In this document: positions 2,493 through 39,951 of the stretch, one piece after another
Layout of the letters: every line of letters begins with the position of its first letter
Position numbering within the stretch: the stretch's first letter is position 1
DNA from: Amphiscolops sp. MND2022
Lineage: Eukaryota
Direction of reading: 5' to 3'
DNA length: 64,000 nucleotides
Assembly (NCBI GenBank): GCA_964187785.1
Contig: OZ076409.1
Location: 52,392,001 to 52,456,000 of the forward strand
The notes under the pieces: model-generated
Database searches by the model: none
Seen by the model: only the letters and a program-made list of their open reading frames with translations
Told to the model about the DNA's origin: nothing
Made by a program: the position numbers and the translations under genes

Positions 2493-2555
2493 GTGAGTTT
2501 TAGACTAATTATAGACCGATTTCGGATTTAATTTTTAGCCAATAATTATTCCCCG

Positions 2556-8457: not shown

Positions 8458-10171
8458 ATCGAAATATTCATTTGTTGCGTCATCAACATGTGAACGAAAT
8501 CTTGATTGATCGACCGTATTCCTATCATGACCATTCAATAAACAGATGTCGAAACGGGAAACTTCAAATCTTACCAACAACAAAAGAACTCCCAAACTAT
8601 CCATGTTATTTCGACAACCGACCGAAGGTTTTAAATCTTCTATCATCGTCTGACTCTGACATCAAATTCCAAGAATTCCGGTTCGTTTTGAACCAAGTCG
8701 TGATTACACTAGCAAATTTTGGGCCAATCAGATTGTTGCATCTCAACATGGGTTTACTGTTGTTTGGGTATTCCGCTAACAACGTTTTTGTGGCAAAAGA
8801 TTTTACCGAGACCCCATTCAGCTTCGAGGAAGAAGAAATCAAAATCAAGCTACAGCAACCTTGGGACAATATTTACTTTCTTATTTTTCCAGGAAAAATG
8901 TCTGATTTCGCATACTTTAATTTTTCGTGGGACATCCTGCAGAAAGTCTCAATTGACTTAGTCAGCTTTACAAAACGTGATTACGTCAGTCGGTTTCCGG
9001 GTGACAGCGCAGTCATTAGTTATGAGAATTTGGACGAAGCTCGTTTCTTACGAAACGATAAAGCCATTTGCCAGCCCTGGTTTGTAGACACCTCTTTCGG
9101 CCGATTGGGTCTTCACAGTGGACTGTGGGATAAACCTGCAAAGTTATCAATAAACGAAATCGACATTAATCACCTTGTTATTGAGTTCAAAAAACAAGGA
9201 ATGGATACGTTTTCTCCTTTTTATTCCCTGGCAATTCTTGACTACAGGAAAAAGTTGGTTGGTTGGTTCAATATTGATGTTTCATCAAACTTAGACTCAT
9301 TCGTTCAGCTGAACTTATCTTCCGCATTTAACCTTGCCAATTATGACAAAGTCACGTTTGCGAAACATCCGTCTGAAATATTTAATTCAGCCTGCCAGGC
9401 TTTGATTTTGCTGCCCTACCAGTATAGCTATTACCACACGTGCGGCCATATTTTAGATGAATACGAAGAAATGATAGTTTTCGGGGACTACTGCCATGGT
9501 AATTCTTTGACCTATTTCCCAAAGGTCATTTATATTCATACATCCATGAAAAACATACAAAGAAACAAACTGGCTATATCCCGATGTCCAAAAGTTGAAT
9601 GCCCTGTAGCTTTCCAGATGACAGCCCCTTCGCTTGGTTCTGAGAATTTCTGCATCAAGAGCGAAAAATGTCCGAAAGATCAACAGTTAACAGATAACTC
9701 TGTAGACGACACAATAAACAGGGTCACCCTGGATCAGTATACAAAAAACCTGGTCGTTAATGAAGTTGGCGGGTATATATCTTACAATGGGTACCCGAGT
9801 TTTGTGGAACTGGCAGGTTACCCGAAACTCGACCTTCATTTTTTGATGTTAACTGTTGCCTGTTCAAACAATGGTTTAGATTTCATTGAAAGCTCCTCGC
9901 TTTCTGATGAAACTCTCAATTCCAATGGGTTGTTTTTGATCAACTTGCGAGACTGGAAGCATAAAACATACAATTGCTCTTGTGTCGGTATAGCTCTGAT
10001 TTACAACGCACAGGGTGTCATGTTTTATGAGGTTGATGACTTCCATAATGCAGAGATCATTGATGGTCTGGTCTATGAGACTGGATATGAATGGGAGGTT
10101 GACCGGCAGAAGTGCCAGAAGCTGATTTACTTAATCACACCCGGGTCAGTACCTACTACTACCGTATCCAG
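8458..10171 (+). CDS. Large exon of LTD-repeat protein gene (about 3 further modules)
   Basis: ORF 8472..10283 has INEID and VVNEVG..FVEL motifs plus xRC...N.C end motifs. aagcag acceptor at 8457; AG|gttag donor at 10172. Confidence 0.8.
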
Positions 10172-10280
10172 GTTAGAATTCGAAACTGCAACTAAACCCA
10201 AAATCAGAGTAAATGAAGACCTGATAACATTTGTGGGAAGCACTTTAAAACTTGAACTAATAGCGATGAAGATTGAAGCA

Positions 10281-12321
10281 TAGCGACATCTTATATCAGG
10301 CGACAACTCATATCAATATGAAAAAGCGATAACTCATATCAGATAGGAAAAGACGAAAACTCATATCAAGTTTGCCAATAAGTTCCAAACATCTAAGTTT
10401 AACGTATTTATAATAACTGCAATTAGAATTTCCAAAATTTATTTGGCATTATTTTGAATTTTATGCGTTCTACTGACAATTATTCTCTCTGTGACCATTT
10501 TGGATCAACCATGTCGGCTGGATCGTAAAACCACTTTAGTAGTTGTTGTATTTCATTTTTAGCCCTTTTATTAGTCGGTGTATTTCATTTTCTGGTCATC
10601 CTGCACATTGTATGGTATCGGTTGTGCGTTCTGTTGTATCGGGTAATATCCCGGTTTTATTTGCATTTTTCCTTCGGCGTTTTTGATTGTATGGTTCGTT
10701 TTAAAAAAATTATTGAATTTTGTGTAGATTGTCTCTGATTGATTGGTTTCTTTGTCCAGTGAGATCTTGTTTTTTGTAACTGGTAATTGTTTCAGCCAAT
10801 TCACACCCGTTAATGTGTTATGCCGTTTCTCTTTGTGATTGGTAACGGCAGTTTCAATGATGTATTGTTGTATTCTATGTCCACCGACACTTTTCCCAAA
10901 AAATATATTTCGTTTTTGTTTCCATCTGGAATCTTTCCTTCATCGGTTGGATATCTTCCAACCATGTTGAACACTTTTGGGTTATTCGGCATGATGGTGA
11001 CCGGAGAGCCGGTGTCATTGGTCAAATTTTGTTCACTTCCGTATATCTTTGTTTCGAAACTGTAGTAGTCGTTGCCGTCCGGTATTGTCTTATTTATTTG
11101 TGTAATTCGGGGGACTTCTTCTTCGTATTTTTGGAAGTCATGTCTTCTGAATAGTTTATTCTTTTTGTATTGCTGTTGGTGTTGCTGCGGCATATCCGTG
11201 GGAAGTGCCGTAACTTTGACAGTTGTCTCATTTTACCATTTTTCTTCAAGCACTTGAATGGAGCGTCCACTTTTGTTGTCCGCTAAATCCGCAATCGTTT
11301 TTTATTGTTGTTTCCGCGTGCTTTTTTGTCTGTAATTTCTGGTTTGACTGTATTAGTTCTCGTTGTTTTTCTTTGTCTTTGGCTAATACGGGTAGTATGG
11401 TAGATTGTTTGTGCCGTCGGGCGTAGCTGTTATAGGTGACGATGTTTTGAGTTGTTTTCAAGTTGAATGTTTCTTCACGGATTTCTTTTTCCCGGAGTTT
11501 TTTTGTCTGTTTTGCAGGTAATATTATTTGAAATGGGTATTTCGTCTTGTTTTATGTCTTTGAAACACAATTCTTTTCCAGAGTTAATTTTTTTAGCCAG
11601 TGTTTTTCGGGTGTTCCGTCATCTTCTTGTTTTGCCCTGAAGAAATCTTCGCGGGTACGACAGGTATTTCGTTTCGGCAAGAAATGTTCCCGCAACGTTG
11701 TACTAATTTGTCGATTTGGATGTTCTCTGGGTCCATTCTTGCGGTGTGTATGGTTTCTTATCGTCTTCTCCGGCGTCTTCCAGTTCCGGTAAAGTGATAT
11801 TGGCTGCAGTCGCCTTGAATGGTCACTTTTTTGGTAAGCTTTTTAGGAAACTTGTGTAATTTTAAAACCAGATCTTGCTTAGTGCACCTTGTTAAAATCT
11901 TTAAACCTAGGGTTAAAACGATGTAATAATATGTTCATCTGAAGTATCTCGAATCTATCTCAGCAATACAACGATCAATTAGTAGCATATACCAAATGAC
12001 AGAAAGTAAGACAGCAATCTAATTAGAGTTTGTAAGACAGCAACTTTCTGTCTGAGGTTGTTCAGTTTGCATTTGGCAGTTTGACCTCTTCATTCCACAA
12101 TATGACAAGGAAGTTGATTATCGAACTGAATAGTTTTCTCTATTCACCTTAGAATTATCGATGTAATATTCAGAAGGTTTTTTGGGAACATTTTAATTCT
12201 GTGATGCGAGTTTTGATTGAAAAGAGTTATCGCTTGATATGAGTTGTCGCTTGATATGCGTCGTCGATTGATTTGAGTCGTCGCCTGATATGAGTTGTCG
12301 CTTGATTTGAGTCGTCGCCGT
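10281..12321. repeat. Element bounded by inverted GCGACAACTCATATCA sub-repeat arrays
   Basis: Arrays at 10281-10370 (+) and 12225-12321 (reverse complement, TGATATGAGTTGTCGC). Confidence 0.65.
10500..11830 (-). pseudogene. Degenerate Gypsy gag-protease-RT N-terminal relic
   Basis: DTGSPVTIMP aspartic-protease motif (ORF 10810..11193) and PIQQNAQPIPY pre-RT motif (ORF 10571..10804); many stops and frameshifts. Confidence 0.75.
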
Positions 12322-12708
12322 AGGGAATATTCCGGCATATTCTGATAAAAATTCAATAAAAAAAGGCAGTCGAAAAAACAATTTCGGAATCGTTTTAGCG
12401 ACGAAGCGTACCCAATAAACTAAAACTTGAAGTTTTTCACTTTTTTGTGTTATTGAAGCCATTTTTCTGGAAAAATTCAAATTTCCAAAAAAAGACAGAA
12501 ATTGTTGTTCGGTGAACCCTGTGGATACTTAAATTCGCAGAAAAACTCAAAAACCGAACGCACATTTGCGCCAAACGAGCAAAAGCTAGGAATTTTGACA
12601 TTTCGGTTGTTCAGTGCAATTTTGTATTTCGAAATGTTCAATAAAAATCAAATTTTGTTATTTTCCGCCCACTAATGATGGGGGAGGAGAATCATAATCT
12701 GTGTTGCG

Positions 12709-13203
12709 TTTTTAGTCGGCGCTTTTCGAAGAAAAACGCAGACTATAGTAGTGACTTTTTTTAAGACCAACGAACTGACAGATTTTATAAATTTTATAAG
12801 TAAGCACTAACACTGCTGTCTGGCACTAACACTAAACCACACTGGCATAGAGGTTACGGCTTTTTGAGGTCTGCCAAGCGGAAGGACATGGGTTCGAGTC
12901 CCGCCCGTGACCAAATTGTTTTTGTGTAGATTTTTTTCGGCTTTGTGAGACTTTTTTTTGCAATTTTTTTAATGTCTCCGAAGGGTCCACCCTTCATTTT
13001 TTTCCTATTTTGCAAAAGAATGGATGTTGAAAAACAGCCAAAGGGCCCCTTTTACATTTTTCGGTACAATGCGACTTACCAGAAACTTCAAAAAAATTCA
13101 AAAAATTTTGGGTACTGTAGAGGAGAGTACTTGACACTTTGAAGTCCTTTTGCTATTTTTGAGCCTCAGATATGGCGCCGACTTGGGCCGTTCCCGGCTT
13201 GTT
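12709..13203 (+). mobile_element. HINE family A copy carrying a tRNA-like Pol III cassette
   Basis: AGTCGGCGC...GCGCCGACT subterminal inverted repeats plus 3' hairpin GGCCGTTCCCGGCT. Confidence 0.75.
12843..12913 (+). ncRNA. tRNA-derived SINE head / pseudo-tRNA
   Basis: A-box TGGCATAGAGG (12843), B-box GGTTCGAGTCC (12891), ends in CCA. An internal T5 run and no clean cloverleaf argue against a true tRNA. Confidence 0.6.
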
Positions 13204-13378: not shown

Positions 13379-14408
13379 AGAAGGCGGAAAATATCCCGGT
13401 GGTTAGCTGGCGTCTTGTTTTTAATTGTATACTGAGTAGCTAACTGTTTAGCTATTGAACTCTGAATATTCAACCCCAGGAAAGCATCCAAAATTTTTCA
13501 CAAAATTGTTTGAAACATTTCCGAGTTTTCTTCTCAGCTTAAAACAGACTGAACATAGTCTAGCCTAGCATATTAAGTTCGGTTTCAGTTCAGGCGAATT
13601 ATGGCCTGCCATAAAAGAAACGATATGATCCCGGCTGATCGTAGCTTGGTATAAATTTATAATTCAAGTCTTCAACTCTGCTCATTAATCTATTTTAAAC
13701 CGGGAGAGATTTTTGGTTCATAAGGTCCAATGTGGCTGAATTGCTTGTTGCATCTGTAGCTTCAAAAATTGTCGGCTCGTTTCCTCTTGAAAGGTCTTGT
13801 GAGATTCCTTGCATAGAAAAGATCGTGTAAGTTTTTGAATCCAGGCGGAAAATAGCCTGGACCGTGTATGATCCCAGCTTAATACTAGTAAGACCATAGA
13901 AGTAACGGAGAAAAAGGAATTTTCTTTTATTTAGATGCATTATTTAGACACAGAAAAGTTCATACTCAGCAAAACGTTCGAAAATTGTACAAAATTTGCA
14001 CTGAATGTCACAATTTGACAAGTTGGCTTTTTGGCGAACTTTTTTTCAAAATAAATCTTTCAATCATTTTCACAGGTCTCTCCTGCATGAAATTTGAGGA
14101 CGGGCCTATCGATGAATAGGAAATTTATCCCCCAGAAGATCCACCTGTGGCAACCTTAAAAACTTTCATTGCCACCAGCAGGAGAAAATTTTAGTCAGTG
14201 GAATTTTGGAACGTTATTTTGATCATAAAAACGAACTTCTCCATCATCTTGCAAATTCATAAATATATACATTTTACCCATGTTGCATTTTGCAAGGGTG
14301 AAAAATTACTTTTAAAAAGTTTCAAAAACTTCATTTCAATTTCAGTAACCAGTTATTCAAGAAATTCGAGAAGAACAATCTGCAAGGAGTCACTTTATCA
14401 CTGAGCAG

Positions 14409-14665
14409 GTGCTCCATGTTTCATCCCACTCGCAACAACGGGGCTTTCTCTACAACATATTCATCGCCCGAATCCGAAAACTTGTGTCCCTCGTTCAAAT
14501 TTTCAGCGGAGAAAATGATGCTGAAAGTTTTCACTGCCGACTATTGCTCAAAAAGTTGGCAAGAAAACGAGTCTATTCTTCGTGCAGCTCGCGAAGAGAT
14601 CGAAGTGATGACTTTCAACACTTGCGCGCAGAACTCAACGCTAATGACGTTACAAAATATTCAGG
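14409..14665 (+). CDS. Exon of LTD-repeat gene completing the last SRC...ENLC module
   Basis: Splicing 10171 to 14409 rebuilds S-R-C (TCC AG|G TGC) followed by ...FSTTYSSPESENLCP, matching AISRCP...SLGSENFC upstream. Confidence 0.75.
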
Positions 14666-15412
14666 GTTCGTTCGCACTTTTTTCATGGAAATACATGTTT
14701 TTCGAATTTAATTTAGATTTTGAAATTTAAGAGTGTCAGTATTGCCATGGTCTTGTTATTAGAGTTGCGGTAGCCTTTCTTGGACCTGTTCTTTTGATTA
14801 GTCGGATGCTTCTCTTTTAAATACGGTAGTAGCAAAAAATATTCCTGATAATTGTTGCATGAACATTCATCTAATACTACAAAACTTGACTTGTATAACT
14901 TGATTTATATTGCAATACAGTGAGCCAGCTGAGCACCGGATTCGTTTTTAGCATCTAAATTATTTCACTATTTACAAAATTTCAAGACTGGAGCGTAGCC
15001 ATCAAGTTTCCCAGTTAATGCTACGCTTAGGTCAGGGCCTCAGGCCCCCCTGAAGGGCCACATGAACAATCATGAAAGTAGTTGCTACATCTATATGCGT
15101 GCATATATATATACGTGTGTGAATGAATTACGTCATGGCAGTTACTATTTTTAGAAACATGTTATTACGTTTGAAAAGACACGTAGTCATACATGTCTAT
15201 TTATAGAATGTTTGTTACTAAAATTAGACTGATGACTCTCAATATTATGCAGGTCATGCAAGGTCAATTATAAATAACCGGGACCCGTGGTCCCGGGGAC
15301 ATAATTTTCCTATGACAAGTCACAGTCAGTTCGTTGTTGAATAACCGAATAAAAGACTGTTTGCAAGCTCAAAGATTCCAATTCAAATTCTTTACTCTTG
15401 CAACAATCTCTT

Positions 15413-17100
15413 ATGCCTTCTACCACACGCCAGAAAGCAAAGGCTAGAAAATCTAGAGAGATGGACATGTTGTCCGATATAGAAACTATGCACGTGATGT
15501 TAGGAAATGGGGGTAGCAATCCCATAGAAAGAGAATTAACTGATGCTATCGAACAATCATCAGTGCAGGGAGACATAGAGTCGAATGAGCACTTGGGAAA
15601 TCAGTATACTAGCTTTGCTTATGAAAATAACCTTCCTAGGCAAGATGATATTAGACAATCCCTTGAGACCTTTTCAAATGAATTCAATCTCAGATTATCA
15701 CAAGAAATGGATTCAATGATGTCCATGATGCATAGCCAAATAAATAGGGCTATCAGTAATGCTATCGCAGAAAGGGTTATTCCCGAAATCCAGAACATTG
15801 TGAGTTCTATGTCCTCTTCAGGAAACAGGGACACTGAGGCCAGTGTATCGCCAAATAGCCAGGAAAACAGGGAATGTTCATCCGGGTTTAAATCAAAATT
15901 TGCAAAGAAGGACTCACAGTCTGCATGTGATTTAAGAGACATAGCAGGTCGTAGTCATTACATGGTGACAAGAGCTAACGAAGCCCAACAGCCAATTCCC
16001 GAATTCCTGTCCGGACGAATCCACTCAATCCCAAACCTGGAGAGACAACAATCTAACCACAATGTCTCTCTGGATACGACTCTGCCAGCTCAGACCCTGA
16101 GGTCCCAGAGTCAACCCAGGACCCGCTCAACAGATTGGCTGACGTATTAGTCAATCTGCAAAACAAACCCCAAACGATGACCATCCGACCAGTCCAAACC
16201 ACACCAATGACATTTGACGGGAAAAGTGAAAAATTTGAACTTTTTGAGGACCTGTTCCACACAATGATCAAAATGCAACCAGCCATGACAGAGCAAATGA
16301 AAGTTAACCATTTTCACTCCTTGCTCAGGAAAGGGGCCCTACAAACTTTCAGGAACATAAACTCAATTAACCGTCAATCACTTGAGGACGTACTGGTCAT
16401 ATTCCGGAGGAAATACGTCAAACCGGAATCCCAAGCAACGGCAAAACATAAATGGCATCGGCTCACTTTTGACCCGCACACCATGAAATTGCCAGATTTC
16501 TTGGAAGAACTGAACCAGGGGGCAGAAAAAGCATTTGGCGAAAATGCAAAGAGCATGATTGACAGCTTATTGTACGCAAAATTGCCTCCAGAACTCAAAC
16601 GATCTGTCAACATGGCCCGCCTGGAGAACGGTACATACGAAGAAATTGTCGCTCATCTTGAAAGAGAGCTTGAACTCAATGCATTGGAAGAGTCTGATGA
16701 CTTACCAATGGCCACCATGGCCTCTGCGTCTACCAGCAACAACAATTTGCTGTCGAACGGCATAAATACCAATAAAGACGCACAATGCTCTTAATGCAAA
16801 GCCACTGGCCACTTTTATAAGAGCTGCCCCAAACTGAAAAAGAAGAAGGAATTGGAGGACAAAAATGGCAAAAAGCCCCAACGCCCTACATACCCAGAAT
16901 GCCCTACTTGCGGAAAGAAAAATCACCACGTTGAAAGATGCTGGAAAGGGGCTGGAGCACATTTACGCCCCAAAAGGACACGTCCTGAAGATAAGGCTGA
17001 TGACACCTCTGGAGTTGAAAAATCATCCAAGAAGTCAACTAGCCCCGAAACCACATCTTCAAGTCATTCATCTTCTCGAAAAACCGATTCAAAAAACTAA
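15413..17100 (+). pseudogene. gag: Gypsy gag with two CCHC knuckles, disrupted by one frameshift and one stop
   Basis: ORFs 15398..16150, 16135..16794 and 16852..17100 join after a 1-nt fix at ~16091. TAA at 16792-16794 sits inside knuckle CS*CKATGHFYKSC. Second knuckle CPTCGKKNHHVERC. Capsid-like FDGKSEKFELFE motif. Confidence 0.85.
17091..17097 (+). promoter_or_regulatory. -1 ribosomal frameshift slippery heptamer A AAA AAC
   Basis: Immediately before the gag stop. The -1 frame is open from here into pol (AAA AAA CTA ATT TCG ... CAG ATG at 17130). Confidence 0.8.
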
Positions 17101-17129
17101 TTTCGCCACGACTCCAAGTTTCCAACCAG

Positions 17130-20100
17130 ATGTCAGTGCGACAATATGTCATATCTGACCCACCAAACATTATTTATAAACAAACTCAAAACGATACCAC
17201 AGGAATGCCATCGACTGTCTGGCAGCAGCAGATGGCCAACGCCCGCATGGAAACTCAACATATTATCCATAGCGACCACCCATACTTATATAGACGTACT
17301 AGCCACGACAATGACTCGGAAACTCCTTTTCGCCCCTTACAAACTGTCGAAGATTATAACCCTCAATACTATGACCCCGAGTATGGCAAAGACCCGTACT
17401 GGGATGAAGAACTATATGACAAAACCAATTTACAATTTCGAAACGAAGATTACCCTCCAACTGACGACGAGGACGACCCAGACATTGAAGACAACACACT
17501 GTCTCGGGCCCTCATTGATCTTTGGCAGCCAAATTTTGATGCAATGATACAAGGAGTAGACGCCACTCAACAACAGGAAGGCCACAAAGCCTCTAACAGC
17601 CTTTTAGATGAAACGGCCTTCCTGCATCTCTTAGTGGCCAAGGAAGGAGAGCCGTCCTACGTTCCCCTTTCAACAAACCTTGGGCTCAAATTTAAAAGAC
17701 GAATGCTCTATTTCCCAATGGATTTTGGAGAGTTAACCCTAGACGGCCTAATCGATACTGGAGCCCACTCCAGTGCAATACCGGAAGCAGACCTTAGAAA
17801 GATACGCCTATTGGCCCCCCAGTCGATAGTAAAAGAAGGACCTGCTCCATCTTTCCAAATAATGGTCGCAAATGGTGATTTAGAAACCCCAAAGAGCACA
17901 GTCGAACTAAAATTTGAGGTGGGAGACATAGAATTTCATGAAATCTTCATTGTAATGGAAAAACTGTCTAGACCCATAATTGGACTGATGTTCCTGCAGA
18001 GGAACCACACCGTCCTGGACATGCGCCAAGGTATACTCAATTTCCCTTACTTCTCGATGCAATTAAAAACGGCCGACCACAAGTATTCCAATGTAATGGA
18101 GCCAGTTCTCAACCCTGAAGACATCACCATTCCCCCGAATGACCTTGCAGTCATCTCCATACAGTCCCAGATCTATGCCGAAAATGCAGTCACGGGGATA
18201 TTACAACCCAGTGACCTCCTCCATGAGGAAGGCGACGTCACATTTTGCGCCGCCATAGTCACATTGCACGAAGGGACTATGAACATACATGTCAATAATT
18301 TCACTGATCAACCCTACAAACTTAAGAAAGGGTTACATATTGCGAACTTTTCAGTAATGACTCCTGAACAAATGAAACATTTCCGACCAATAGACCCGGT
18401 GTCCACCTGGCATCTATTGAACGAAAATGAGGAAGACGCCATTTACTATATTAGCAGCCTTCTTAAGGCCAATAAAAACAACGACCAATATGAACAGTAT
18501 TGGTTCCCGACACCTGAGAACCCAGGGGACGAAACAACACATACGCCCATCCAGCAAAGAATTCTCAGAGAATTGCGAAATCTAAAAGATATAGAAAATC
18601 TTAACCCGCAAGACAATGCTGAATCTAGACGAAAATTTCTTAGCAATTTTTACTGGAAGGATTCAATGCTACAACAGCATGAAATCAAACAAATAGAAGC
18701 TCTTTTAATAGAATTTCATGACATTTTCGCCCGACACAGATTTGATATCGGCGTCAACGAGGAATTTACGGTCAAATTGACCCCGAAGGACGATTCACCA
18801 GCTTATAGCCAGAGCTTACCTACCCCGGTCAATCTCAAAGAGGATATATTGGTGGAACTGGCTTTACTTCATAAATATGGTATTATAACGACACTACCAT
18901 TCTCAAAGTATGCCAGCCCCATATTCGCCCAGAAAAAAACCAATGGCAAATTAAGACTACTGGTTGACTTGAGGAAAATTAATAATCTCATATCTGACGA
19001 TTATATCAATAACAATCACCCAGTCAGCACCTTAACGGATGCCGCGCAGCATATGGCCGGGAAAAAGCTTTTCTGCAAACTTGATTGCTCGCAGGCCTAT
19101 CATTGTCTCCCAATGGCCGACCAGAGGTCTATTGAAATGCTCGCTTTCAATTTTGCTAGCAGGACCTTTGCCTACCGCAGATTAGCGCAAGGCCTCAGCA
19201 GAGCCTTATCGGCTTTCTCCAGTTTTATGCGAGAGTATTTAGACCGGGTGATCAAAGCAGATCAATGCGGACAATATGTGGACGACATTGGCATCGCAGC
19301 CAAGTATGCCGAACATCTCATTACGAACCTCAGGGCTAATTTTGAATGTATCAGACAAGCCGGACTCAAACTGTCCATGCACAAGTGCCACTTTGGCACT
19401 ACCGAAATTGACTTTCTAGGGAGAACCATTACCCCTGAAGGTGTAAAACCCCAAAAAGAAAGAATCACTAACTTCTTGGAAAAGACGAAATTCCCAAAGT
19501 CCAAGAAGGCCTTACAACGCTATCTTGGTTTCCTCAATTACTACAGGAATTATATTCCAAGGCTATCCGAAAAACTAGTTCCCTTCTTCCAATTGCTCAA
19601 AAAGGATGAGAAGGTACTAGTGACGCAAGAGCTGGTTGAACAATTTAATGAGATCAACCGCGATTTAGACCGATGTAGTCAATTGGCGTTGAAACAACTT
19701 CTGCCGATTAAACAACTGGTCCTCATGACTGACGCAAGTTTTACAGCAGCCGGTTACCCCATATTGACCGAAGATGACCCAAATCAAAAACATACTTCCG
19801 TTAAAAAGTCCTATGCGCCGATTGCATACGGATCCAAAACTTTCACGCCTTCTCAGCTCAAAATGTCGATATATGCAAAGGAATTCCTAGCTATATATTA
19901 TGCATTTAAAGAGTTTGGACATATATTCTGGGGAACACCTCAACCTGTGATTATTCTCACAGATAACAAATCGGTTACGAGGTTCTTCCAAACCAAGATA
20001 ATTCCACCGCCACTTTGGAATGCTTGTGATTTTGTAATTCAGTTCAACTTCATCATAGCTCACATTCCAGGCAAGAAAAACACAGCGGCAGACTACCTGT

Positions 20101-22199
20101 CCCGCATGAAAATGGACCCCACTGAAAAGTTGGTCCTGAAAATACGAGAGGACGTAGAAACTAGACCGATCGAGGTCAATGTCCAATCGGCCGGCGTGTC
20201 AGAGGAAGAGCAAATTTTCTTCACTGAGGAGGACAACGAAACAGAAGAACAGATTTGGGAACGGAAAAAACAAACCAAAAAAGGACTCATGGTCCCTGAG
20301 ACAGTCATCCACATCGATGCCATATCGGAAAATACAATAGAAGAAATTACCAATTTCACACAAAAATTACGACGAACTAACCAGATACTGCTTGAACAGT
20401 CTAAAGACCCGATTTTGCTCCAATTGAAAGCAAAACTTCAAAAGGAAGAATACTCTGAAGAAATCTTACAACAAGATATTCGGTATAAGTACTATTTGAA
20501 CAATATAGATCGAATAGTCCTTAAAGACGAAATTATGACAAGACAGTACTATGACGAAATTGGCCAGATCAAATTTCATCAAATTCTGTTACCGAAGCAC
20601 TTAGTTCAAGAACTATTACAAGCAATACATGGTACAGCACATCGCCATCCAGGCATTTCTAAAATGCTACAGGAAATTCGCCAAAAATATTACTACCCAG
20701 GAATTGCAAAACATGTCAAAAAATGGGTAAAAGGATGCGAAACATGTGCCAAGGACAAAAGGGTTCCCAACACGGTAATTACCCCAGAATTACTAAATTT
20801 GCCCGAATGGGACCTAGGGCCAGAAGATGCCATGCAAATTGACTTATTACCAAATTTACCAACCAGCGGCGAATACCAAACAGTGATGACTGCAATAGAC
20901 GTATTTTCAAGATATCTTTTTGCCTACCCACTCACTGAGGCAACAGCCGCAAATGTAGCTAAAGTCATTATCGATATAATGACAAAACACTCGTATTTGC
21001 CAACAACACTCATCACGGACAACTGGTCCGCATTTACCTCAAAGATTTTAGAAGAAATTACTGAGATTTCGGGAATCACACTGAAATGCGCCACTACTAA
21101 ACACCCGCAAACTATTGGCAAACTTGAAAGGACTCACGCCTCTTTAAAAACCAACCTGAAGATGGCCTCAGGGGAATATCGTCGTCAATGGCACAAATAT
21201 TTACCATTAGCAGTGCTCAAATATAACACTACTTATCACGCTAGTTTTGGTTGCGAGCCTAGCAAAGTCTTTCATGGCCGAATCCCCTACAATGTCCTTG
21301 ATCATAAATTAGGAAATAACCCTAATAAAAATTTCCTACCGACAACTGAATTTGCGGAAGAACTACAGCAGAGGACGCATATCCTCATTGATCAGACAAA
21401 AAAGAATATTATGCAGTCGTATTTAAAGTACAAGCAGTACTACGACCGCAAGGCCAAAGCGGCTCCGCTACAAGAGAAAGACTACTGTTTTCTTCTTCAA
21501 CCGAAAGCGGATAGTCAAGGCTCTAAAATACCATTTAGGGACTTCCGATGGATTGGTCCCTTTGTCGTCCAAAAAACCTTACCAAATAACAATTATATAG
21601 TGCGTCGTTTAAATACGAATAAGACGCAGATCTTGCACCGGATCAGGCTCAAAAAACTTGTTCCAAACACCCCATTAGAGGACAAGTATAAAGAAGAGAA
21701 ATTACAGCCTGATGAGGAGATAGTAATACCGCAAGATGATTTGTATACCATTTCATGGGAAGCGGACTTTGAGTACGAGCTATTCGAGCCGAAGACAAAT
21801 GATTGGCCACATACGGCCACGCGTCTGCCACAGGACGCCGCGAACGGAGAAGTCGACTATTACGTCACCGAGAATGAAAGCAGCAGCGTAAACGAAAGTG
21901 AGCGCAGCAGCGAGAGAATGAATGACAATGACGCCAACGAGAATGAAGTACGGCCGAGATCGGCCAGCAACCGTGACGCGTCGTCCCCTCCGAGCGAATC
22001 GCCTAGTGGGACGGAAAATGAAAATGACGTCAGAAATGATTTAGAAAATGAGAAAATTGCTTCAAAAGGAGGCCTAGATATTACCGTGCCCGGAATATCG
22101 GAAAATGAAAGAAATGAGGAAAATCCTATCCCTAGAGGAGGGAAATATAATCTTCGACCTAACCCCAACCCCAACTTTACTGATGAATACAGATACTAA
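17130..22199 (+). CDS. pol: Gypsy pol polyprotein: protease, dUTPase-like segment, RT, RNase H, integrase
   Basis: LIDTGAHSS (PR); LAQG and YVDD (RT); TDAS / KEFLAI / TDNKS / ADYLSR (RNase H); H..H..CETC and D-D-E (IN); C-terminal YNLRP. Confidence 0.96.
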   Translation: MSVRQYVISDPPNIIYKQTQNDTTGMPSTVWQQQMANARMETQHIIHSDHPYLYRRTSHDNDSETPFRPLQTVEDYNPQYYDPEYGKDPYWDEELYDKTNLQFRNEDYPPTDDEDDPDIEDNTLSRALIDLWQPNFDAMIQGVDATQQQEGHKASNSLLDETAFLHLLVAKEGEPSYVPLSTNLGLKFKRRMLYFPMDFGELTLDGLIDTGAHSSAIPEADLRKIRLLAPQSIVKEGPAPSFQIMVANGDLETPKSTVELKFEVGDIEFHEIFIVMEKLSRPIIGLMFLQRNHTVLDMRQGILNFPYFSMQLKTADHKYSNVMEPVLNPEDITIPPNDLAVISIQSQIYAENAVTGILQPSDLLHEEGDVTFCAAIVTLHEGTMNIHVNNFTDQPYKLKKGLHIANFSVMTPEQMKHFRPIDPVSTWHLLNENEEDAIYYISSLLKANKNNDQYEQYWFPTPENPGDETTHTPIQQRILRELRNLKDIENLNPQDNAESRRKFLSNFYWKDSMLQQHEIKQIEALLIEFHDIFARHRFDIGVNEEFTVKLTPKDDSPAYSQSLPTPVNLKEDILVELALLHKYGIITTLPFSKYASPIFAQKKTNGKLRLLVDLRKINNLISDDYINNNHPVSTLTDAAQHMAGKKLFCKLDCSQAYHCLPMADQRSIEMLAFNFASRTFAYRRLAQGLSRALSAFSSFMREYLDRVIKADQCGQYVDDIGIAAKYAEHLITNLRANFECIRQAGLKLSMHKCHFGTTEIDFLGRTITPEGVKPQKERITNFLEKTKFPKSKKALQRYLGFLNYYRNYIPRLSEKLVPFFQLLKKDEKVLVTQELVEQFNEINRDLDRCSQLALKQLLPIKQLVLMTDASFTAAGYPILTEDDPNQKHTSVKKSYAPIAYGSKTFTPSQLKMSIYAKEFLAIYYAFKEFGHIFWGTPQPVIILTDNKSVTRFFQTKIIPPPLWNACDFVIQFNFIIAHIPGKKNTAADYLSRMKMDPTEKLVLKIREDVETRPIEVNVQSAGVSEEEQIFFTEEDNETEEQIWERKKQTKKGLMVPETVIHIDAISENTIEEITNFTQKLRRTNQILLEQSKDPILLQLKAKLQKEEYSEEILQQDIRYKYYLNNIDRIVLKDEIMTRQYYDEIGQIKFHQILLPKHLVQELLQAIHGTAHRHPGISKMLQEIRQKYYYPGIAKHVKKWVKGCETCAKDKRVPNTVITPELLNLPEWDLGPEDAMQIDLLPNLPTSGEYQTVMTAIDVFSRYLFAYPLTEATAANVAKVIIDIMTKHSYLPTTLITDNWSAFTSKILEEITEISGITLKCATTKHPQTIGKLERTHASLKTNLKMASGEYRRQWHKYLPLAVLKYNTTYHASFGCEPSKVFHGRIPYNVLDHKLGNNPNKNFLPTTEFAEELQQRTHILIDQTKKNIMQSYLKYKQYYDRKAKAAPLQEKDYCFLLQPKADSQGSKIPFRDFRWIGPFVVQKTLPNNNYIVRRLNTNKTQILHRIRLKKLVPNTPLEDKYKEEKLQPDEEIVIPQDDLYTISWEADFEYELFEPKTNDWPHTATRLPQDAANGEVDYYVTENESSSVNESERSSERMNDNDANENEVRPRSASNRDASSPPSESPSGTENENDVRNDLENEKIASKGGLDITVPGISENERNEENPIPRGGKYNLRPNPNPNFTDEYRY

Positions 22200-22427
22200 A
22201 AGACATGTAAATTAACGTCCCAAAGGTCCGTGGACCAAATGATGAATTTCAAACTGGGACTTTTCAGTATCTTTAGAAACATACACGTCGACAAAACGAC
22301 TTGATGGCGCACTATGCAAAGGCCAAAGACACTAATTAGAACAATTACTCAACACTAAAGATAAATAAATACAAAAAACAGAATTACAGAAGGCCAACAG
22401 TTTGAAACAGATGTACACTATGTACAT

Positions 22428-25400
22428 TTAAGGTTTAGTAGAACCTCCTCGCAACTCTTTCACAGTTTTGGCAACTTCGGCAGCAGGAATCACACTCTCA
22501 GGGGCCAGCGTAACTGTTTTCCCTGGGGAACGGAAAGATGTCCCAGCCCCCTCACTGACTAAAGAGGAAGAACGGCTGCGAACAACTTTAACGGGACTGA
22601 CATCATGACCTTGAGTCTGGTAAGCTGACATCAGAGCCTTGTAAAACTTGCTCTGCCCAAAAATGTCAACGTGGGACCATGGGTCCCCGGGCACATTCCC
22701 AGAATCAAAACGGGTTTCAAGCTCGTGAAATTTATTCAGGGCAGATTCAGACACGCAAGAAACCACTGAGTTCGGACCGGTAGCCAAATAAGACTGAGCA
22801 GGCAATAATACACTTGATAATCGGCAATTGGGGTCGGATGAATCGGCTCCTTCAAAACGAATAGTCGGCAAGTTAGGACTGCTCTCGGTCAAACATAAAC
22901 AGCCCAATCTAAACAGATGGAATAGTCGTGGCCTGCCCCGGAAAGATGGCAAGGAAACGAGTAAGTCGACAATGTCGGGGACAGGGTCAGCCATCCTGAG
23001 ATGCCCATGAGAGTTGCGAAATTGATCAAGGAATTCGACATATTCCTCACGATGATCAGCCTCGTCGGCCTCCTGGACCCATCCACGCAGTTGGAAGCTG
23101 TAATATAATGCCCGGAAACAGAACAAGGCTTGATCCATAGGCTGTGACAGTAGGACGTTGGGGTCGAAACTAGCCATCCCTCGAACTATGCCAGCAGTGA
23201 CCCGGATGTCCTTCAACAAAGAGTCAAGGACGAACCCGACATAACGACGGGCCTGGGTTGCGAAAGAGTCTCTCACAGTTTCTGTGAGACTTTCAATGAC
23301 AGAGCTCAAGTTCTTCCGTCCTGCATTGTCCTTCTTGGCCTTAGAACGCGATGCTTCTTCCAAATCGAATTTTAAATTAAGTCGGGAAAGGAAATCTCGG
23401 CAAGACAGTTCCCGGCAGTCACTTAGAGAGAGCTGCAGAAGTCCAGACCAGTCACTGTCCGCAGGAGTGTGCTTGGGAAGGATGGAGCGGCCACACAGCT
23501 TGCGGAGGAACCGACACAATTCGCCAAATGTAAAGAAGCCGGAATCTCGCCGTTTAGTCAAACTATGACTGAAGCACTTGGTGTCTAAACAAAACAAACA
23601 AGGATCTGAATGAAATAAAATGGAAAGAGATAGGCGACAGGACGGATTCAACTCTAATCTTGCAAAATTAATGCGCAGTTAAGAAACTATGAAACGGAAA
23701 AGAGTGGGACTTTTTAGTCATCAGAATTACTTACAATCACGAACTAAACGTCCAAAGAATTCCAACTTGGCTGGGTACAGTTCATCCGACATGATCGTCC
23801 ACTCAAGACTCTGCGGCTATAACAAAAGGGCACAGCATAAATAAGACCTCAAACTGCCTCTACTCAAGAAATTGCATGTATTACGATATAATGAATCTCA
23901 AGATCATGAAAGTCGATATACTAACCATATCCTTCACTCCCTGCATGGCGTTTTTGGGGCTATTTTGGTAAGGAAGTCCAGAACCAGGCTCCAATTGAGA
24001 ATAAGTTCGGAGCAAATCGCAGGAATTTTCTGAATCTCAAAACTGCTAGCGTCAATAGCCTACAATACAAATCCTAGGATGACTACCAGCTTACTTTCCC
24101 AAAGCAGAAAATAATGGAGAAAACATACCCTGGTAAGTTCAGGAGCATCCACGGTCCAGGACTGGATCAAGATTCAACTAAGGGTGACGATGAGAAATTT
24201 CAACTGGGAGAAGATGTCGACTGTCCCGAAAACATTGGTATCTGACTGATGCATGATAGAGGAGAGGGAGAAAGCATCGAATCGGAATGGATACTGGACG
24301 TTGTAAGTGAATTCCTCACTGTCATCAATAGCCTGAACCACGGAAACAGAGCAACCGGACACACTCACTAACTTGGGCTTCGTGGAAGTAATTGACAAAA
24401 GTCGCGAAATCCCAGAGAAGTAACTAGTGGGAACTCCGTGGGCTAAAGGGCAACGATATATTTGGACCCTCACCAGACTGTCATCCTTCCAGAAACGGAC
24501 GGACATCATCCGGCTTCGTCCGGAAATCTCGAATTCCAGAGAGTACATGTCACTGGACGTAATTTGGTGGGAGATATCTTCGATCCCACAGATGAAGATG
24601 TGGTGGAAAATTGCCTAAATGGGAAAAGACTGAAACTTACGGAATTACGTGACTTCACTGTACAGATTATGACTCTCAACTTACCGTTAGTTTAGCGGAC
24701 CCCCAGTCGAAAGGCAGGAAAGCTTCCTGGTAATTCATGTGGATCCCGACCTGAGTCCAGAGGGCCTGGAGCATCCTGATATCTCCAGAGAAGGGGACCA
24801 TTGTTCCGATCAAAGCGATTTGGGTGCAATCCCTAGAGTCTCCAGTGGTTTGTCTCCCTTCTTGTCGAGCAAGGTATTCCTCGTAAAAGGGGAACTCTTC
24901 TCCTATGTCGACCAATTGGGCATTTTCGAAGAAGGGTTCTCTTTTTCCAATTCTAGTGGAGTAAGGAGCAATCCGTTTCTTCCTCGGACTTGGTGGGTCA
25001 CTACCTTGGTAATCTCATTCACCTTTTTGAGGTAGGTAAAACGCCAAAGCTGGTCCTTCCTCAAATGGGACTCTGATTGATAGTGACGGATGATCTCTCT
25101 AGCGCCCTTGGAGTAGATTGAGACATTGCTCTTACAGATTCTGCAGTAAAATTTGTACTGGTTGTGGGCAGGGTCCAATGGTCCAGTCACAAAGATTTTA
25201 GTCCAACGGATGCCTTTGAAATACGCTTCCTTCATCACTTTTCCTGGGCGTCCAGCTAGCCTTCTCCGTTTGCGGGGAGGACCCTTTGGAGCAGATTTAC
25301 TTGTGGTAGTTGCCCTGAGACTTGACAGAGGGGCATAGTCGCCTAGGCTATATCCACTTCCGGGGCTAAGAGGGACCTCAAGGAGAGCTTCCTTATCAGC

Positions 25401-26429
25401 GTTCAGCGCTTCTGAAACCGTGTTGACGCTAGGTCCAGCTTCCTTGTCATCGATACAAAAGGACAAGCTACCCGGTTCATCGTCGGTGTTGATAGCTCCA
25501 CTGGTGTAACCTTCATTTGGAGAGTCAATGTCAGTAGTCTCATATTCGGAACTGCTTGGCTCTTGTCTACCAGAGGCTGTGAAACTGCTCATGTGCCTGC
25601 ATCGTTCCTTACTCAAAATTTTGCCTGAAGTAGCTTGCAGCAAGAGTGACTTCATTAAGTGGAACGAAGACAATATAGTCTCATCAGACATGGTCTTGAG
25701 GACGGTGTGCATTTGTCCCTCTGTGAGTGCAATCACGGGCTGGTTACGTGGAAGGACTATGGGGTCCTTGGAAGCAAAATGTTTCCGCAATAGTGTTCGT
25801 CCACTTGCGGACAGTTGCCGCGGAGGCTGTTCTCGGCCCTGACTAGTTCCGGGCAAATCTTCATTGGACTCGTCGCAACTTGTGGAATCGGTTCTCGGTC
25901 GAGGAACCTTAATGAGTGTGGGGGTGCTCTTGGCTTGCGGGGTAACTGGTCCTCCAACTCCAGAACTATCCAGGAGATCCTCGACATCGGTGGTGTCAGT
26001 GAAATATTTGTCTGGGTCAAGTGTGCGTTGTTTAGATGAGCGACTAATCTCCCCCACTCGGCAACTTTCCACATGGGTCGTTGTGGCGTCACCTGCACCA
26101 TCGCGTGGAATGATAGACGTGGCTGCTCGTGGGGTAATGGAGATTTCTTCGGACATTGAAGCTTTAGCCTGTTCGGCCTTTTCTTGTTTTTGTGCTAATG
26201 GAGGAAGCAGGGAAGCAATCCCAGGAGTATCTCGGGCAATGATAGCTTCGACAGTTCTTTCTGCATAAGTAGAGAGACTCTCTTCAGTAGCCTCAGTGGA
26301 AGTAGACAGCCCTGAAGGAGGTCTGGTTTCGATTGGTTGAGTGTTAGCAGGCGTTTCCTGGCGTTGGAAATCTTCGTTAGCACGTCCTTCGAGTACAACG
26401 TTCACCGGGTTAGGGTTTTGAGTCGTCAT
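22428..26429 (-). pseudogene. Spliced antisense gene for a ~1200-aa BED-finger, hAT-transposase-like protein (2 frameshifts and 1 stop in this copy)
   Basis: Exons 26429-24685, 24614-24129, 24059-23926, 23816-23735 and 23584-22428, joined by GT-AG introns of 70, 69, 109 and 150 bp. Zinc finger FYCRICKSNVSIYSKGAREIIRHYQSESH. Lesions at ~24940, 24174 and ~23965. Confidence 0.7.
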
Positions 26430-27631
26430 TCCTAAATAAAAGGAAATGAAGTCAAGCGGGAACCTTCCTGAATATGAATCCATTTACCGCATTTAAAAAT
26501 CTTCCGGAAGTTAATATTTCGAACATGCGTGGAAACACGTGTTATTGGACAGGAAGTACTGAAGTGTGAATAGAGCCCTGATCAAGCCCATCACAGTTCA
26601 AATCTAAAGAAAACTACTTATATGAAATCGGTGACGCGGAGACTCGATAGTAACAACAGGAGTCGGCCAGAGAGGGATTGTAAAAAGCTGCTGAAGGGGA
26701 GACAGGATGTCGATTTTCCGCAGTGATCCAGAAGAATCCACACGGATGAGGACGAGTGGACACTGAGTCCGGGGATGAAGCCGGAATATAATGAGATGAA
26801 AAATTAAATAGAAGTGACTTAAAGACTAACTATCGACTAAATTAGAAATGGATAAATACGATGATGGTTAAATACTGGATAATAGAAGAACAAAATGTGG
26901 AATTGAAAGTAAAGAATTGAAAAGATGAATAGGCGATGTGACAAGATGTCAAGATTGGAGTTCGTGGCTATACACTTTGGTGTCAAATTCATTGCTATTT
27001 ACAACTTATGGCATTATGTGGATAGAGTCTGCCAGCGATATCTACATTTTCCTTATTTATTTCGAAAACTTTGTTATTTCGCAAAATTATTTCATGATTT
27101 TATTTTATTTCATTCTACTTTATTTTGTTTTCAAGGTCATATTATTTTATTCCTTATAAGGATTTACAACCTTGGATCGCCATTTTATCAATGGAATCAT
27201 ATTTACGAAATCTGGTTGGCTACCACCAGGAAGGTGAGACAGCGTGGCCTCCGACCGAATTCTCACCCTCTTAAAACTTTCAAGTGGACTATGAGTGTTA
27301 ATAAACACTCATCTCGGTGCTTAAGAAGTGAAGGTGGTGATGAGGGCCATGAGTGTCAATAATGCCGCTGTTGGCAATTTCAAAGTGATTATAATAACTA
27401 GTTAAAAGAAAGTTACCCGGGAAATTTTGTTATTGAAAAATAACTCGAAAACGAAAAGGGAAAACCCGGGGAATAGCAAACCGAGAGGCAACAAGACTCA
27501 GCGGACTGATAAGAGAAACGATCGCCATTATTAATCTTTCAATCAATCAGATCAGTCGCTCTAGAAAAGCCACCTCGACTTGAAACTCTTACATTATCAA
27601 AATTGCCAAGAAAATATTAAAAACCAGATCC

Positions 27632-28453
27632 ATGTCTGATTTTCCTGAATTGTTCCCTATGGACTTCCCGGGTGCTGCTCAATCTGAGAGGGTTCCTGCA
27701 ATAATTTATATCTCAAGTGATGAAGACGAGAGAATGGACTCCTTCGACGGAGACTCGGTGGATGATGTTAACGTTTCATCTGAAGAAGAAGTGTCAGACA
27801 TCGAAATTATGGCGAGATGTGTAGAAAGACAAATGACTGAACCCATTGCTATTCCTGACTCTGAAAAATCTGAGGCTCAAGTTAGGTGTGGAACGCCCAG
27901 GCCGGACTTACCGCCCTTCCCCGTCTTCACTCAACAATTTTTCAACCTGGGTATGGGCAATGGGCCTATTGGGAGAGACGACCGTGTAAGACCTAACCAC
28001 CCTATCAATATCTGCAGGGACTTACGACCTAACGTAGATAGTCCAATGTCACCACCGCCAGAAGACAGAGGGCCGAATTGTGGACAAGAAACACCAGGCT
28101 GTTCCTACTCTACGGATCCTACCCCGGTTGAAAGCGTGGCTAACCACTTCAATGACATGACAGTGTCTGGGAACGCTGGCTTGCTGGGCTGCTCAGACTG
28201 TGTGGTCTGCAGGAAACCAGTCCAGCAAATACAAGACGAGACAGTCAACGACTACCTCAGCAAAACAGTTGTCCCAGGAGAAACACTGGCTGAGACTGAG
28301 AGAAGAAAGAGAGCTTTCCTGGACGGCATGGCAGCTGGGACATTTTTATTAATGCCAGGGGGAGTGTCGCAGACGGCCGCCTGCGATGGAAATTGGTATA
28401 CAATTGCATATGGATACTGCAGGGCTTTACCCGGAACAATCCCATTAGATTGA
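27632..28453 (+). CDS. 273-aa acidic hypothetical protein with SIM-like motif and CxxCxxC
   Basis: Intact ATG-TGA ORF. IIYISSDEDE (hydrophobic core plus acidic tract); CSDCVVC. Confidence 0.7.
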   Translation: MSDFPELFPMDFPGAAQSERVPAIIYISSDEDERMDSFDGDSVDDVNVSSEEEVSDIEIMARCVERQMTEPIAIPDSEKSEAQVRCGTPRPDLPPFPVFTQQFFNLGMGNGPIGRDDRVRPNHPINICRDLRPNVDSPMSPPPEDRGPNCGQETPGCSYSTDPTPVESVANHFNDMTVSGNAGLLGCSDCVVCRKPVQQIQDETVNDYLSKTVVPGETLAETERRKRAFLDGMAAGTFLLMPGGVSQTAACDGNWYTIAYGYCRALPGTIPLD

Positions 28454-28556
28454 GAAGGCAGAGAGATTTGAGCCAGGAAGTCCGAAGAAACTATTATTAG
28501 AACTTTTGTGATGAAAACTGGGATGAAAAACTTTGTGATATATAAATATATATATA

Positions 28557-28821
28557 TATAAGGTTTGTTGCTATTTTTTATACATTTTTTGACCCAGCAA
28601 CCGTCACAGTAAAAAAAGCGAAAAAATGAGAAACTCTCATTGATTTGTTTACGAACAAGACGCACCGTTGAGCACCGCGATATTTTAGGCTAAAATATCG
28701 CGGTGCTCAACGGTGCGTCTTGTTCGTAAACAAATCAATGAGAGTTTCTCATTTTTTCGCTTTTTTTACTGTGACGGTTGCTGGGTCAAAAAATGTATAA
28801 AAAATAGCAACAAACCTTATA
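28557..28821. repeat. Perfect 265-bp palindrome (132-bp arms, 1-nt loop), probably a foldback MITE at a TA tract
   Basis: 28557-28688 is the reverse complement of 28690-28821; the left end abuts (TA)n. Confidence 0.92.
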
Positions 28822-39700: not shown

Positions 39701-39951
39701 ATGTCAATTTGGATAGAAAATTGGAATATGACAAATTTTTCGAAAAAACACGACGGATCTAATTATTTTCTTTTCTCATATGGAATTTGGGCAGAAAGGC
39801 TGCAATTGTGTGGAATGTTTTTTTATCTAATGCAAAAGTTTTTTCTAAAGTACTTTAAGGTGGAAAATTTTCTGGTGCTTAGCGGCGTAGTTTATCAGGT
39901 GAGTATCCTTCAAAATGGTGTAAATTTGAAAAAGATTTTAAAAATACTAAC

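Follow-up and report, generated by a model that had tools for sequence, protein, structure and literature searches.

An Antisense, Intron-Split Accessory Gene of Possible Transposase Ancestry Is Exchanged as a Block between Ty3/Gypsy Retrotransposons

The window analyzed here is a 64,000-nucleotide stretch of DNA from Amphiscolops sp. MND2022. Positions 15049 to 28520 hold one member of a large Ty3/Gypsy LTR superfamily, a copy that is both truncated and broken, with most of both LTRs gone. On the forward strand, the 3' part of the 5' LTR (15049 to 15961, ending in CA; 94 to 98% match to a relative's LTR in its 3' part) is followed by the primer-binding site position (15962 to 15975, TGGTGACA..), and the first ~155 nt of the 3' LTR, with its TG start (28365 to 28520), is preceded by the polypurine tract position (28354 to 28364, ..CAGGGGGAG). 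Both sites adjoin the LTRs in this copy and in relatives, whose whole LTRs span 1.4 to 1.85 kb from TG to CA; in the F lineage, CCCGCAG takes the place of the purine run. The forward-strand gag frame (15413 to 17100) starts ~550 nt inside the LTR and runs through the LTR end and the primer-binding site; it is a single open frame of ~550 to 600 codons in relatives and carries a frameshift and a stop here. Pfam searches matched gag to DUF1759 (E 4e-6) and weakly to Retrotrans_gag and a zinc knuckle. The pol gene (17043 to 22199, forward) encodes, in Pfam order, protease, a weak dUTPase-like region, reverse transcriptase (RT), RNase H, and integrase, and the order protease-RT-RNase H-integrase is that of Ty3/Gypsy elements. 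Relatives have direct LTRs (TG..CA), and 5-bp target duplications were found in 16 of 27 fetched elements, the pattern being indecisive for the other 11. LTR pairs are 97 to 100% identical, indicating recently active elements, and copies are spread over all 13 large contigs.

A reverse-strand gene is situated between pol and the 3' LTR; neither its place nor its orientation differed among the whole elements inspected, which came from different lineages. The earlier note had described an intron-containing antisense gene belonging to the retroelement, and the fixed position and the comparison of 13 copies (including the window copy and some near-duplicates) bear this out. The large exon (26431 to 24685) is followed by intron 1 (24684 to 24615; 70 nt, phase 0), exon 2 (24614 to 24129), intron 2 (24128 to 24060; 69 nt), exon 3 (24059 to 23926), intron 3 (23925 to 23817; 109 nt), exon 4 (23816 to 23735; 82 nt), intron 4 (23734 to 23585; 150 nt, phase 1), and the last exon, exon 5 (23584 to 22428), which is helical and contains RPRLFHLFRLGCLCL near 22890 to 22935. 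These introns are bounded by GT and AG exactly where the earlier note had placed them, and GT-AG was present at aligned positions in 52 of 52 cases (13/13 for introns 1 and 4). The count of five exons and four introns held for the four introns and missed a fifth, upstream intron (26621 to 26432, reverse strand). Its TTTAG acceptor (AG at 26433-26432) was found in 23/23 anchored copies and its donor, by pattern, in 20/23; the donor consensus is lost in the window copy. This intron contains conserved motifs (the CTTCCGGAAG palindrome, CAGGAAG, and CCTGATCAAG).

The exon-intron structure is conserved well beyond close copies. Exon lengths of 486, 135, 82, and 1157 nt were kept in 12, 12, 13, and 12 of the 13 copies, respectively, and the spliced frame was open over 1196 to 1228 aa in 9 of them. 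Across four distant copies, nucleotide identity was 0.35 to 0.48 in intron interiors and 0.63 to 0.68 in exons. Among 10 copies from lineages with no more than 32 to 48% identity in exon 5, five showed the same intron positions, three had no open exon chain, and two gave off-register chains. Natural intron-less homologues reproduce junctions 1 and 4: P0111 lacks intron 1 and keeps the 7-residue spacer, and P0302 and P0355 lack intron 4 and keep its spacing. The window copy is itself degenerate, with frameshifts near 24938 (large exon) and 23959 (exon 3). It had been thought in phase after two 1-nt repairs, but an in-frame stop at 24176-24174, in exon 2, means that these two changes do not open it.

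The large exon encodes an S/T/P-rich N terminus with one conserved helical island, a basic motif, a CCHH finger, and a helical region. The proposed S/T/P richness was confirmed (S+T+P 29 to 34% in all but one of 16 models, the exception being off-register). The NLS-like motif PPRKRRR (25280 to 25260), which may direct nuclear import, has a counterpart in 13/16 models. The finger is C-x2-C-x16-H-x5-H (25145 to 25065). Of 120 homologues in the collection, 102 retained the finger intact, 7 had none, and 11 gave no anchor. As for its proposed BED type, the CCHH pattern stands, and the likeness is one of pattern only: PF02892 (zf-BED) matched no family member while matching host hAT L122, and Pfam returned only sub-threshold C2H2 matches on the finger. 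No transmembrane stretch was detected in the antisense protein (maximum 19-residue hydropathy, 1.72).

The gene is under purifying selection. Substitutions fall mostly at third codon positions (differences by position in exon 2, 0.29/0.19/0.64; exons 3 to 5 similar), and dN/dS was 0.02 to 0.15 for all but one of the seven within-lineage pairs that could be measured, most distant pairs being dS saturated. Values were 0.13/0.09/0.15 for c3b-c6c, 0.05/0.05/0.09 for H1-H2, and 0.04/0.05 for F2-F3. We conclude that this is almost certainly a real, functional gene, and its predicted product is probably a nuclear DNA-binding regulator.

Upstream of the antisense gene is a divergent intergenic region (26622 to 27631), a predicted internal two-way promoter, in which the words GGAGTTCGTGGC and GTCTGCCAG were conserved in 21/22 and 19/22 elements. 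A conserved frame at 26950 (MSRLEFVA) was rejected as a gene on account of widely varying frame lengths. Beyond this region, the forward strand carries ORF4 (27632 to 28453; 273 aa), a sense accessory ORF that, like the other sense ORFs of the element, is intron-less; it overlaps the polypurine tract and ends ~90 nt inside the 3' LTR. A SIM-like IIYISSDE and SPMSPP were both present in 11/11 ORF4s. No Pfam family exceeded the cutoff for ORF4, and no env-like transmembrane anchor was found in any of the 11 (maximum 19-residue hydropathy, 1.03 to 1.44), in contrast to the anchored sense third ORF of env-bearing, errantivirus-like elements.

Comparison of element modules showed that the antisense cassette moves between backbones as one block, a finding that is new here. 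Of 29 rows, 7 (duplicates or rearranged) were removed, leaving 22 elements, all collected by cassette search; presence of the cassette in 22/22 is therefore by construction. RT can be 99% identical while exon 5 is only 48% identical, and integrase holds at 97 to 99% where the cassette falls to 48 to 73%. Elements c3b and H1 are 95.6% identical over 948 to 8894 and 93.8% over 13472 to 16684, with the intervening cassette not shared, whereas c3b and c6c share only the stretch from 8644 to 13191. ORF4 moves separately: it is 96% identical between c3b and H1 (exon 5, 48%), and the window copy and c2a match at 97% of nucleotides in exon 5 and 54% in ORF4. Approximately unbiased (AU) tests on 14 of the 22 elements, with groups picked after the identity tables were seen, rejected identical groupings for the different modules (p from 1e-12 to 1e-60, all <1e-11). 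The cassette also diverges far faster than capsid (c3b versus F3: capsid 91%, RT 86%, integrase 84%, and exon 5 37% amino acid identity). Many deeply diverged cassette types coexist on near-identical backbones, in free combination with LTR and ORF4 types. No short-repeat arrays were seen within the cassette.

The earlier note had likened the protein to hAT transposases, partly through a C-terminal segment reminiscent of the hAT dimerization helix. Statistical support for this was lacking: PF05699 (Dimer_Tnp_hAT) was detected in 0/46 and 0/64 members, with E values of 1e-11 and 4e-17 on host hAT controls. In hhalign comparisons, probabilities against host hAT profiles were at most 3.9%, like those of reversed or shuffled controls. 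In an anchored core test against hAT, 26 of 40 shuffles scored equally well or better; HMMs against host hAT frames and PDB profile searches gave no hAT support, and a PDB profile match to Taq polymerase (E 0.05 to 0.2) was attributed to chance and vanished in a later profile search. Foldseek returned no match at E ≤0.001 and listed no hAT, the models being of too low quality for such a search (pLDDT 39 and 45). These models rest on shallow alignments: exon 2 (8 rows) reached pLDDT 39.4 with a best Z of 3.8 to unrelated chains, and exon 5 (12 rows) reached pLDDT 44.6 with a best Z of 6.2 on one helix pair. No Tip100-type hAT relatives were found in viral contigs. A DUF4371 profile search of G000 gave no match and is uninformative, since it missed L125, which does carry the domain. 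With no support from Pfam, from PDB profiles, from hhalign, or from the low-confidence folds, the cassette was not classed as hAT.

What favors a hAT relationship is architecture. Exon 2 is predicted, with low confidence, as helix-beta-beta-beta-helix-beta-helix, a strand order compatible with an RNase H-like core (model pLDDT 39). The first strand had been described as having no Asp; the Asp is indeed absent, but a conserved Glu (24536) stands there, and the position is acidic in 9/9 models. By eye, the distance from this acid to the second-strand motif (SGC, near 24353) is 59 to 61 residues, compared with 63 in host hAT L119, and VVSVVTDNA of L119 falls opposite LVSVSGCPA of the cassette. 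In this by-eye register, strand 1 keeps only the Glu and Gly-Cys stands at the second Asp; a CxxH and an S-x-ER-x-FS-type third acid are absent from the same register, which has no statistical support. Of the catalytically dead transposase proposed earlier, the absence of a recognizable DDE triad is supported; hAT descent is statistically unsupported. Domain order and motif spacing make hAT ancestry plausible without an intact DDE, and, on balance, we lean toward a hAT-like ancestry of the antisense protein.

A less likely reading gives the accessory factor a source other than a transposase: a gene captured from a host or virus, whose product would act on RNA or particles of the element in the manner of Rev- or CERV-type exporters or of HBZ-type regulators. 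None of the formal hAT tests gave a signal, five spliceosomal introns suggest a host-type gene source, and antisense regulators and export factors are described in retroelements (PMC7264820, PMC10309623). However, the succession of finger, helices, three strands, helix, strand, and long helical region resembles that of host hATs in order and spacing, the homologues looked up were all unnamed element-like frames, and no single-copy host relative was among the best 150 of 775 matches.

Our working model for the cassette retains a probable transposase ancestor. Introns lying opposite the genomic RNA strand are not spliced from genomic RNA and so survive reverse transcription. What is observed is the arrangement of exons and introns, the purifying selection, the fixed position, and the exchange in blocks. 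In the model, the antisense gene would be transcribed from an internal two-way promoter that also serves ORF4, and cassettes may be swapped by template switching at their flanks. The finger would bind element DNA. Given that cassette types combine freely with LTR and ORF4 types, its sites would be located inside the cassette itself or would be words that every element has (e.g., the conserved palindromes). Fast divergence and many coexisting types may reflect conflict with the host. The whole picture, a block-exchanged, intron-split antisense gene for a likely nuclear zinc finger DNA-binding factor, probably a dead descendant of a cut-and-paste transposase, that would help the element escape or modulate host silencing, seems to us evenly poised between right and wrong; an anti-silencing role specifically is predicted with slightly less assurance. 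Only tentatively do we suggest the fullest version, that the superfamily domesticated a cut-and-paste transposase as an intron-bearing antisense anti-silencing cassette, dozens of deeply diverged versions of which are swapped, like alleles, among near-identical backbones in a host arms race, so that one class of transposon would have been domesticated by another.

Two other functions appear improbable, to a similar degree. As a targeting factor, the protein would anchor the integration complex on particular chromatin or DNA, as a predicted nuclear DNA-binding finger in recently active elements might suggest; but the 16 target duplications (from the 16/27 elements with resolved ends) comprise 15 different 5-mers with no sequence preference, copies lie on all 13 large contigs, and integrase stays constant as the cassette diverges. 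As a selfish or exclusion module, cassette types would block other elements or harm cassette-less cells and would be kept by frequency-dependent selection, as the many diverged types on near-identical backbones might suggest. ORF4, the sole candidate partner, reassorts independently, which argues against a cognate toxin-antidote pair, and Pfam searches revealed no toxin-like domain. A nested DNA transposon independent of the retroelement, or neutral cargo, to which possible transposase ancestry and the gene's own introns and predicted promoter might point, is largely refuted by fixed place and orientation across lineages, strong purifying selection, the missing DDE triad, and a search that found no terminal inverted repeat around the cassette in 4/4 copies (only 10- to 12-nt A/T-rich matches).

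The reading of the cassette as an anti-silencing factor invites comparison with VANC proteins, which have cognate target repeats. Such repeats were not found in the cassette element, the two are likened by description, and free reassortment with LTR types argues against strict cognate protein-LTR pairing as in VANC. The HBZ transcript is spliced. HBZ and APH-2 are likewise antisense nuclear regulatory genes inside retroelements, but they are small and 3' LTR driven (PMC11963269), whereas the present gene is large and multi-intron, with a predicted internal promoter. VANC (PMC13547354) is, like the cassette product, an element-encoded, fast-diverging accessory protein, but it belongs to VANDAL/MuDR plant DNA transposons and is reportedly derived from MAIN; a like function is proposed for the cassette product.

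The closest positional counterpart is the aORF-3R of plant Ty3/Gypsy elements, described in PMC7264820 and PMC11963269 for Retand (TRP28/PF04195), maize Grande (gene23, with its own internal promoter), and RIRE2. Both are family-conserved antisense ORFs between pol and the 3' LTR with a nuclear product, predicted or shown. The cassette differs in its apparent animal host, its ~1,200-aa product with a CCHH finger, its five spliceosomal introns, the block exchange, and a second sense ORF head to head with it. PF04195 found no match in the antisense protein in Pfam searches, and the word "intron" occurs nowhere in the text of the Retand paper. hAT/ZBED proteins (PMC10368747, PMC3606216) share by eye an N-terminal CCHH finger and, after it, helical and beta-rich regions in similar order and at similar spacing, but ZBEDs keep the DDE (PMC3606216), and the cassette protein, which lacks that triad and any Pfam, profile, or fold match, is retroelement-borne, without inverted ends, and has a 400-aa low-complexity N terminus. 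Bdelloid rotifer LTR elements also have exchangeable extra ORFs and a dUTPase region in an animal host; their ORF3s (PMC5408684) are env, GDSL esterase, or DEDDy nuclease, none matched by the cassette, and the abstract mentions no antisense multi-intron structure.

Where the antisense extra ORFs of LTR retrotransposons come from and what they do is stated to be an open question, and a search for antisense spliced transcripts has been called for (PMC7264820). The present family provides such an ORF that is large, strongly conserved, and split by five introns, and its natural swaps (the same backbone with another cassette, and the reverse) are built-in controls for the gene's role. If the transposase ancestry is true, a retroelement has domesticated a DNA transposon gene. 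Abundant as this repeat family is, its gene of 1,200 aa would escape standard annotation. Among homologues, a first search aimed at longer proteins found none; a metagenome match (L189) was dropped, its contig being GC-rich and bacterial-looking, with GDPWAHVD the sole common stretch. The most divergent homologue, P0422, found no placement in the genome, and of the ESM Atlas lookups, one was blank and one gave a match of 0.76.

The element around the antisense gene is, by its coding content, Ty3/Gypsy. On the plus strand, a broken gag (window 15413-17100) is followed by pol (17043-22199), which encodes, in the order typical of Gypsy elements, protease, RT, RNase H, and integrase. A weak dUTPase-like match (E 0.026, below the cut-off) lies between protease and RT at ~18110-18360. 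The two translations imply that pol overlaps gag in the -1 frame (17043-17100), at a run rich in A that is likely a frameshift site. No LTR pair was detected inside the 64-kb window because both LTRs are truncated. When the last exon of the antisense gene (exon 5, 22428-23584) was used to query the genome (1.07 Gb), 107 of 7,686 candidates were scored, and all 107 matched at 55-100% identity. Intact relatives are ~15.7 kb long with LTRs of 1.4-1.85 kb and TG..CA ends, and target duplications of 5 bp were resolved in 16 of 27 relatives. The gag frame starts ~550 nt within the 5' LTR and continues through the LTR end and PBS (15413-15975), so that each 3' LTR repeats ~190 gag codons; this embedded part diverges fast (42% at the amino acid level between deep lineages). 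A frame opening like the gag N terminus of this family was also seen in a more distant LTR family (L131, minus strand, ~2790-3400). Elements occur in head-to-tail arrays of three or four with ~14.1-kb spacing on contigs C5 (3.36-3.41 Mb), C9 (14.57-14.61 Mb), and C11 (38.66-38.69 Mb), and members of the C5 array have LTRs in common. The young elements of the F lineage (L169-L174) carry CCCGCAG at the PPT position and no purine run.

An intron that lies antisense to the genomic RNA is retained through reverse transcription. The four introns of the earlier note were borne out exactly where they had been placed, with GT..AG in 52 of 52 aligned cases (13 copies, some near-duplicates); the count was not, as a fifth intron lies upstream. 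Exon lengths are near-invariant among the 13 copies, nine of which retain an open spliced frame of 1196-1228 aa. Identity among four distant copies is 63-68% in exons and 35-48% in introns, and exon differences concentrate at third codon positions (0.60-0.64 versus 0.12-0.31). Of 10 copies from deeper lineages (exon 5 32-48% identical), five shared these intron positions; the chains from two were off register, and the remaining three yielded none that was open. Natural homologues without the intron reproduced predicted junctions 1 (P0111) and 4 (P0302 and P0355) with the same spacing. The window copy itself is, from its sequence, dead: the two frameshifts previously repaired are present, position 24176 carries a stop, and the donor of the upstream intron is lost. 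A palindrome, TGTACA-TAG-TGTACA, directly follows the antisense stop (22414-22430) and was found by strict pattern in 11 of 22 elements.

Young lineages are open, as judged from close matches to the homologue P0154, 78 of 86 of which lack a stop. In measurable within-lineage pairs dN/dS was 0.02-0.15, and the window element versus its relative c2a gave 0.35 at dS 0.05; most distant pairs were saturated. Collection homologues formed 179 clusters for exon 1 and 78 for exon 5 at 90% identity, and 775 at 50% (E≤0.001), the best 150 of these 775 all being ≤418 aa; all 18 homologues looked up were unnamed ENA entries. One homologue, P0307, lies on a 5-kb contig; none of the 104 candidates scored in the window's genome matched it at E≤1e-85, so other genomes probably also harbor the family.

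Across 22 elements, gag, RT, integrase, exon 5, and ORF4 gave discordant identity tables and trees. Between the relatives c3b and H1, identity is 99% for capsid, RT, and integrase, 96% for ORF4, and only 48% for exon 5; their DNA match stops just past the pol stop and restarts upstream of the antisense gene cassette; for c3b and c6c, the cassette is the sole shared DNA. In AU tests of 14 elements, with groups chosen after the identity tables were seen, exon 5 rejected c3b+H1 and c6c+I1, while RT and ORF4 rejected c3b+c6c and H1+H2 (P = 1e-12 to 1e-60 over all rejections); c3b+H1 was not rejected on RT (P = 0.19). Between the deepest lineages compared, capsid kept 91% and exon 5 37%. All elements were found via the cassette, so its presence among them is by construction and says nothing of loss. 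These comparisons demonstrate, at the level of sequence, that the cassette has been exchanged as a block between elements.

The sense ORF4 (27632-28453), head to head with the antisense gene, overlaps the PPT, ends inside the 3' LTR, and reassorts independently of the antisense gene. In each of the 11 copies compared it consists of one frame and keeps I/V-I-Y-I-S-S-D-E (which we take to be SIM-like), SPMSPP, and C-x2-C. Conserved words in 19 to 21 of 22 elements mark a putative internal two-way promoter from which the antisense gene would be transcribed. Structure, selection, position, and exchange of the gene are shown; its product is predicted to be a nuclear DNA-binding protein. Because cassette types reassort with LTRs, its binding sites would be cassette internal or universal. 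An anti-silencing role is suggested by fast divergence, many coexisting types, and the SIM-like motif in the partner ORF4.

The protein opens with ~400 S/T/P-rich residues that include a single conserved helical island. Next come a basic motif, present in 13 of 16 models, and a C-x2-C-x16-H-x5-H finger, intact in 102 of 120 homologues; the rest consists of helices, then a segment of three strands, and finally an extended helical stretch. No part of it scored as a membrane helix. It had been described as hAT transposase-like, and by eye its domain order and spacing agree with those of a host hAT, L119: from the strand 1 acid to the second motif there are 59-61 residues versus 63, with LVSVSGCPA opposite VVSVVTDNA. 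As the earlier note held, the first strand lacks the DDE Asp; one Glu is all that remains of the catalytic residues in this register. The likeness may be closer to ZNF862-like hAT proteins. Every formal test, however, was blank for hAT: Pfam searches (host hAT controls matched), PDB profile searches, HMMs against host hAT frames, hhalign against host hAT profiles, which are shallow, and fold searches with weak models. Thus, the protein may act as a dead transposase would, yet the gene is not classed as a hAT member, and hAT ancestry is unproven. The source genome contains hAT transposases of the Ac-like, DUF659-like, and DUF4371 types whose open frames are long (L107, L109, L119, L122, L123, and L125). 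Of the other roles envisaged, a sequence-level targeting factor is disfavored, since 15 different target duplications were found among 16. A nested transposon, which flanking hAT TIRs would have indicated, is likewise disfavored: no inverted ends surround the cassette in 4 of 4 copies.

Transposases of the hAT type have a BED finger (CCHH/CCHC) at the N terminus together with a dimerization domain (PMC10368747, in excerpt), and ZBEDs retain the DDE motif (PMC3606216, in excerpt). Rotifer LTR elements are known to carry additional modular ORFs (PMC5408684, abstract), and VANC has been described (PMC13547354, in excerpt). In the literature searched, mainly open-access papers, we found no account of an antisense gene with several introns or of a gene of transposase origin in an animal LTR element; a repeat-library entry may exist. 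On the comparisons made here, the antisense gene is a real, selected, exchangeable accessory gene, a form of antisense extra ORF of unproven ancestry and putative function.

Just past the truncated 3' LTR, a 132-nt perfect inverted repeat (28557-28821) beside a TA-rich run had no match in the fetched loci. The window also contains a MITE-like element (98-909) whose inverted ends are 47 nt long and which holds 29-nt repeats internally, a 620-aa plus-strand open frame with no Pfam family above the cut-off (8421-10283), and near-identical tandem units of ~3.1 and 2.1 kb (47700-59700). A 2283-aa minus-strand open frame (39879-46730), presumably RNF213-like and so pointing to an animal host, has AAA-ATPase domains by Pfam.
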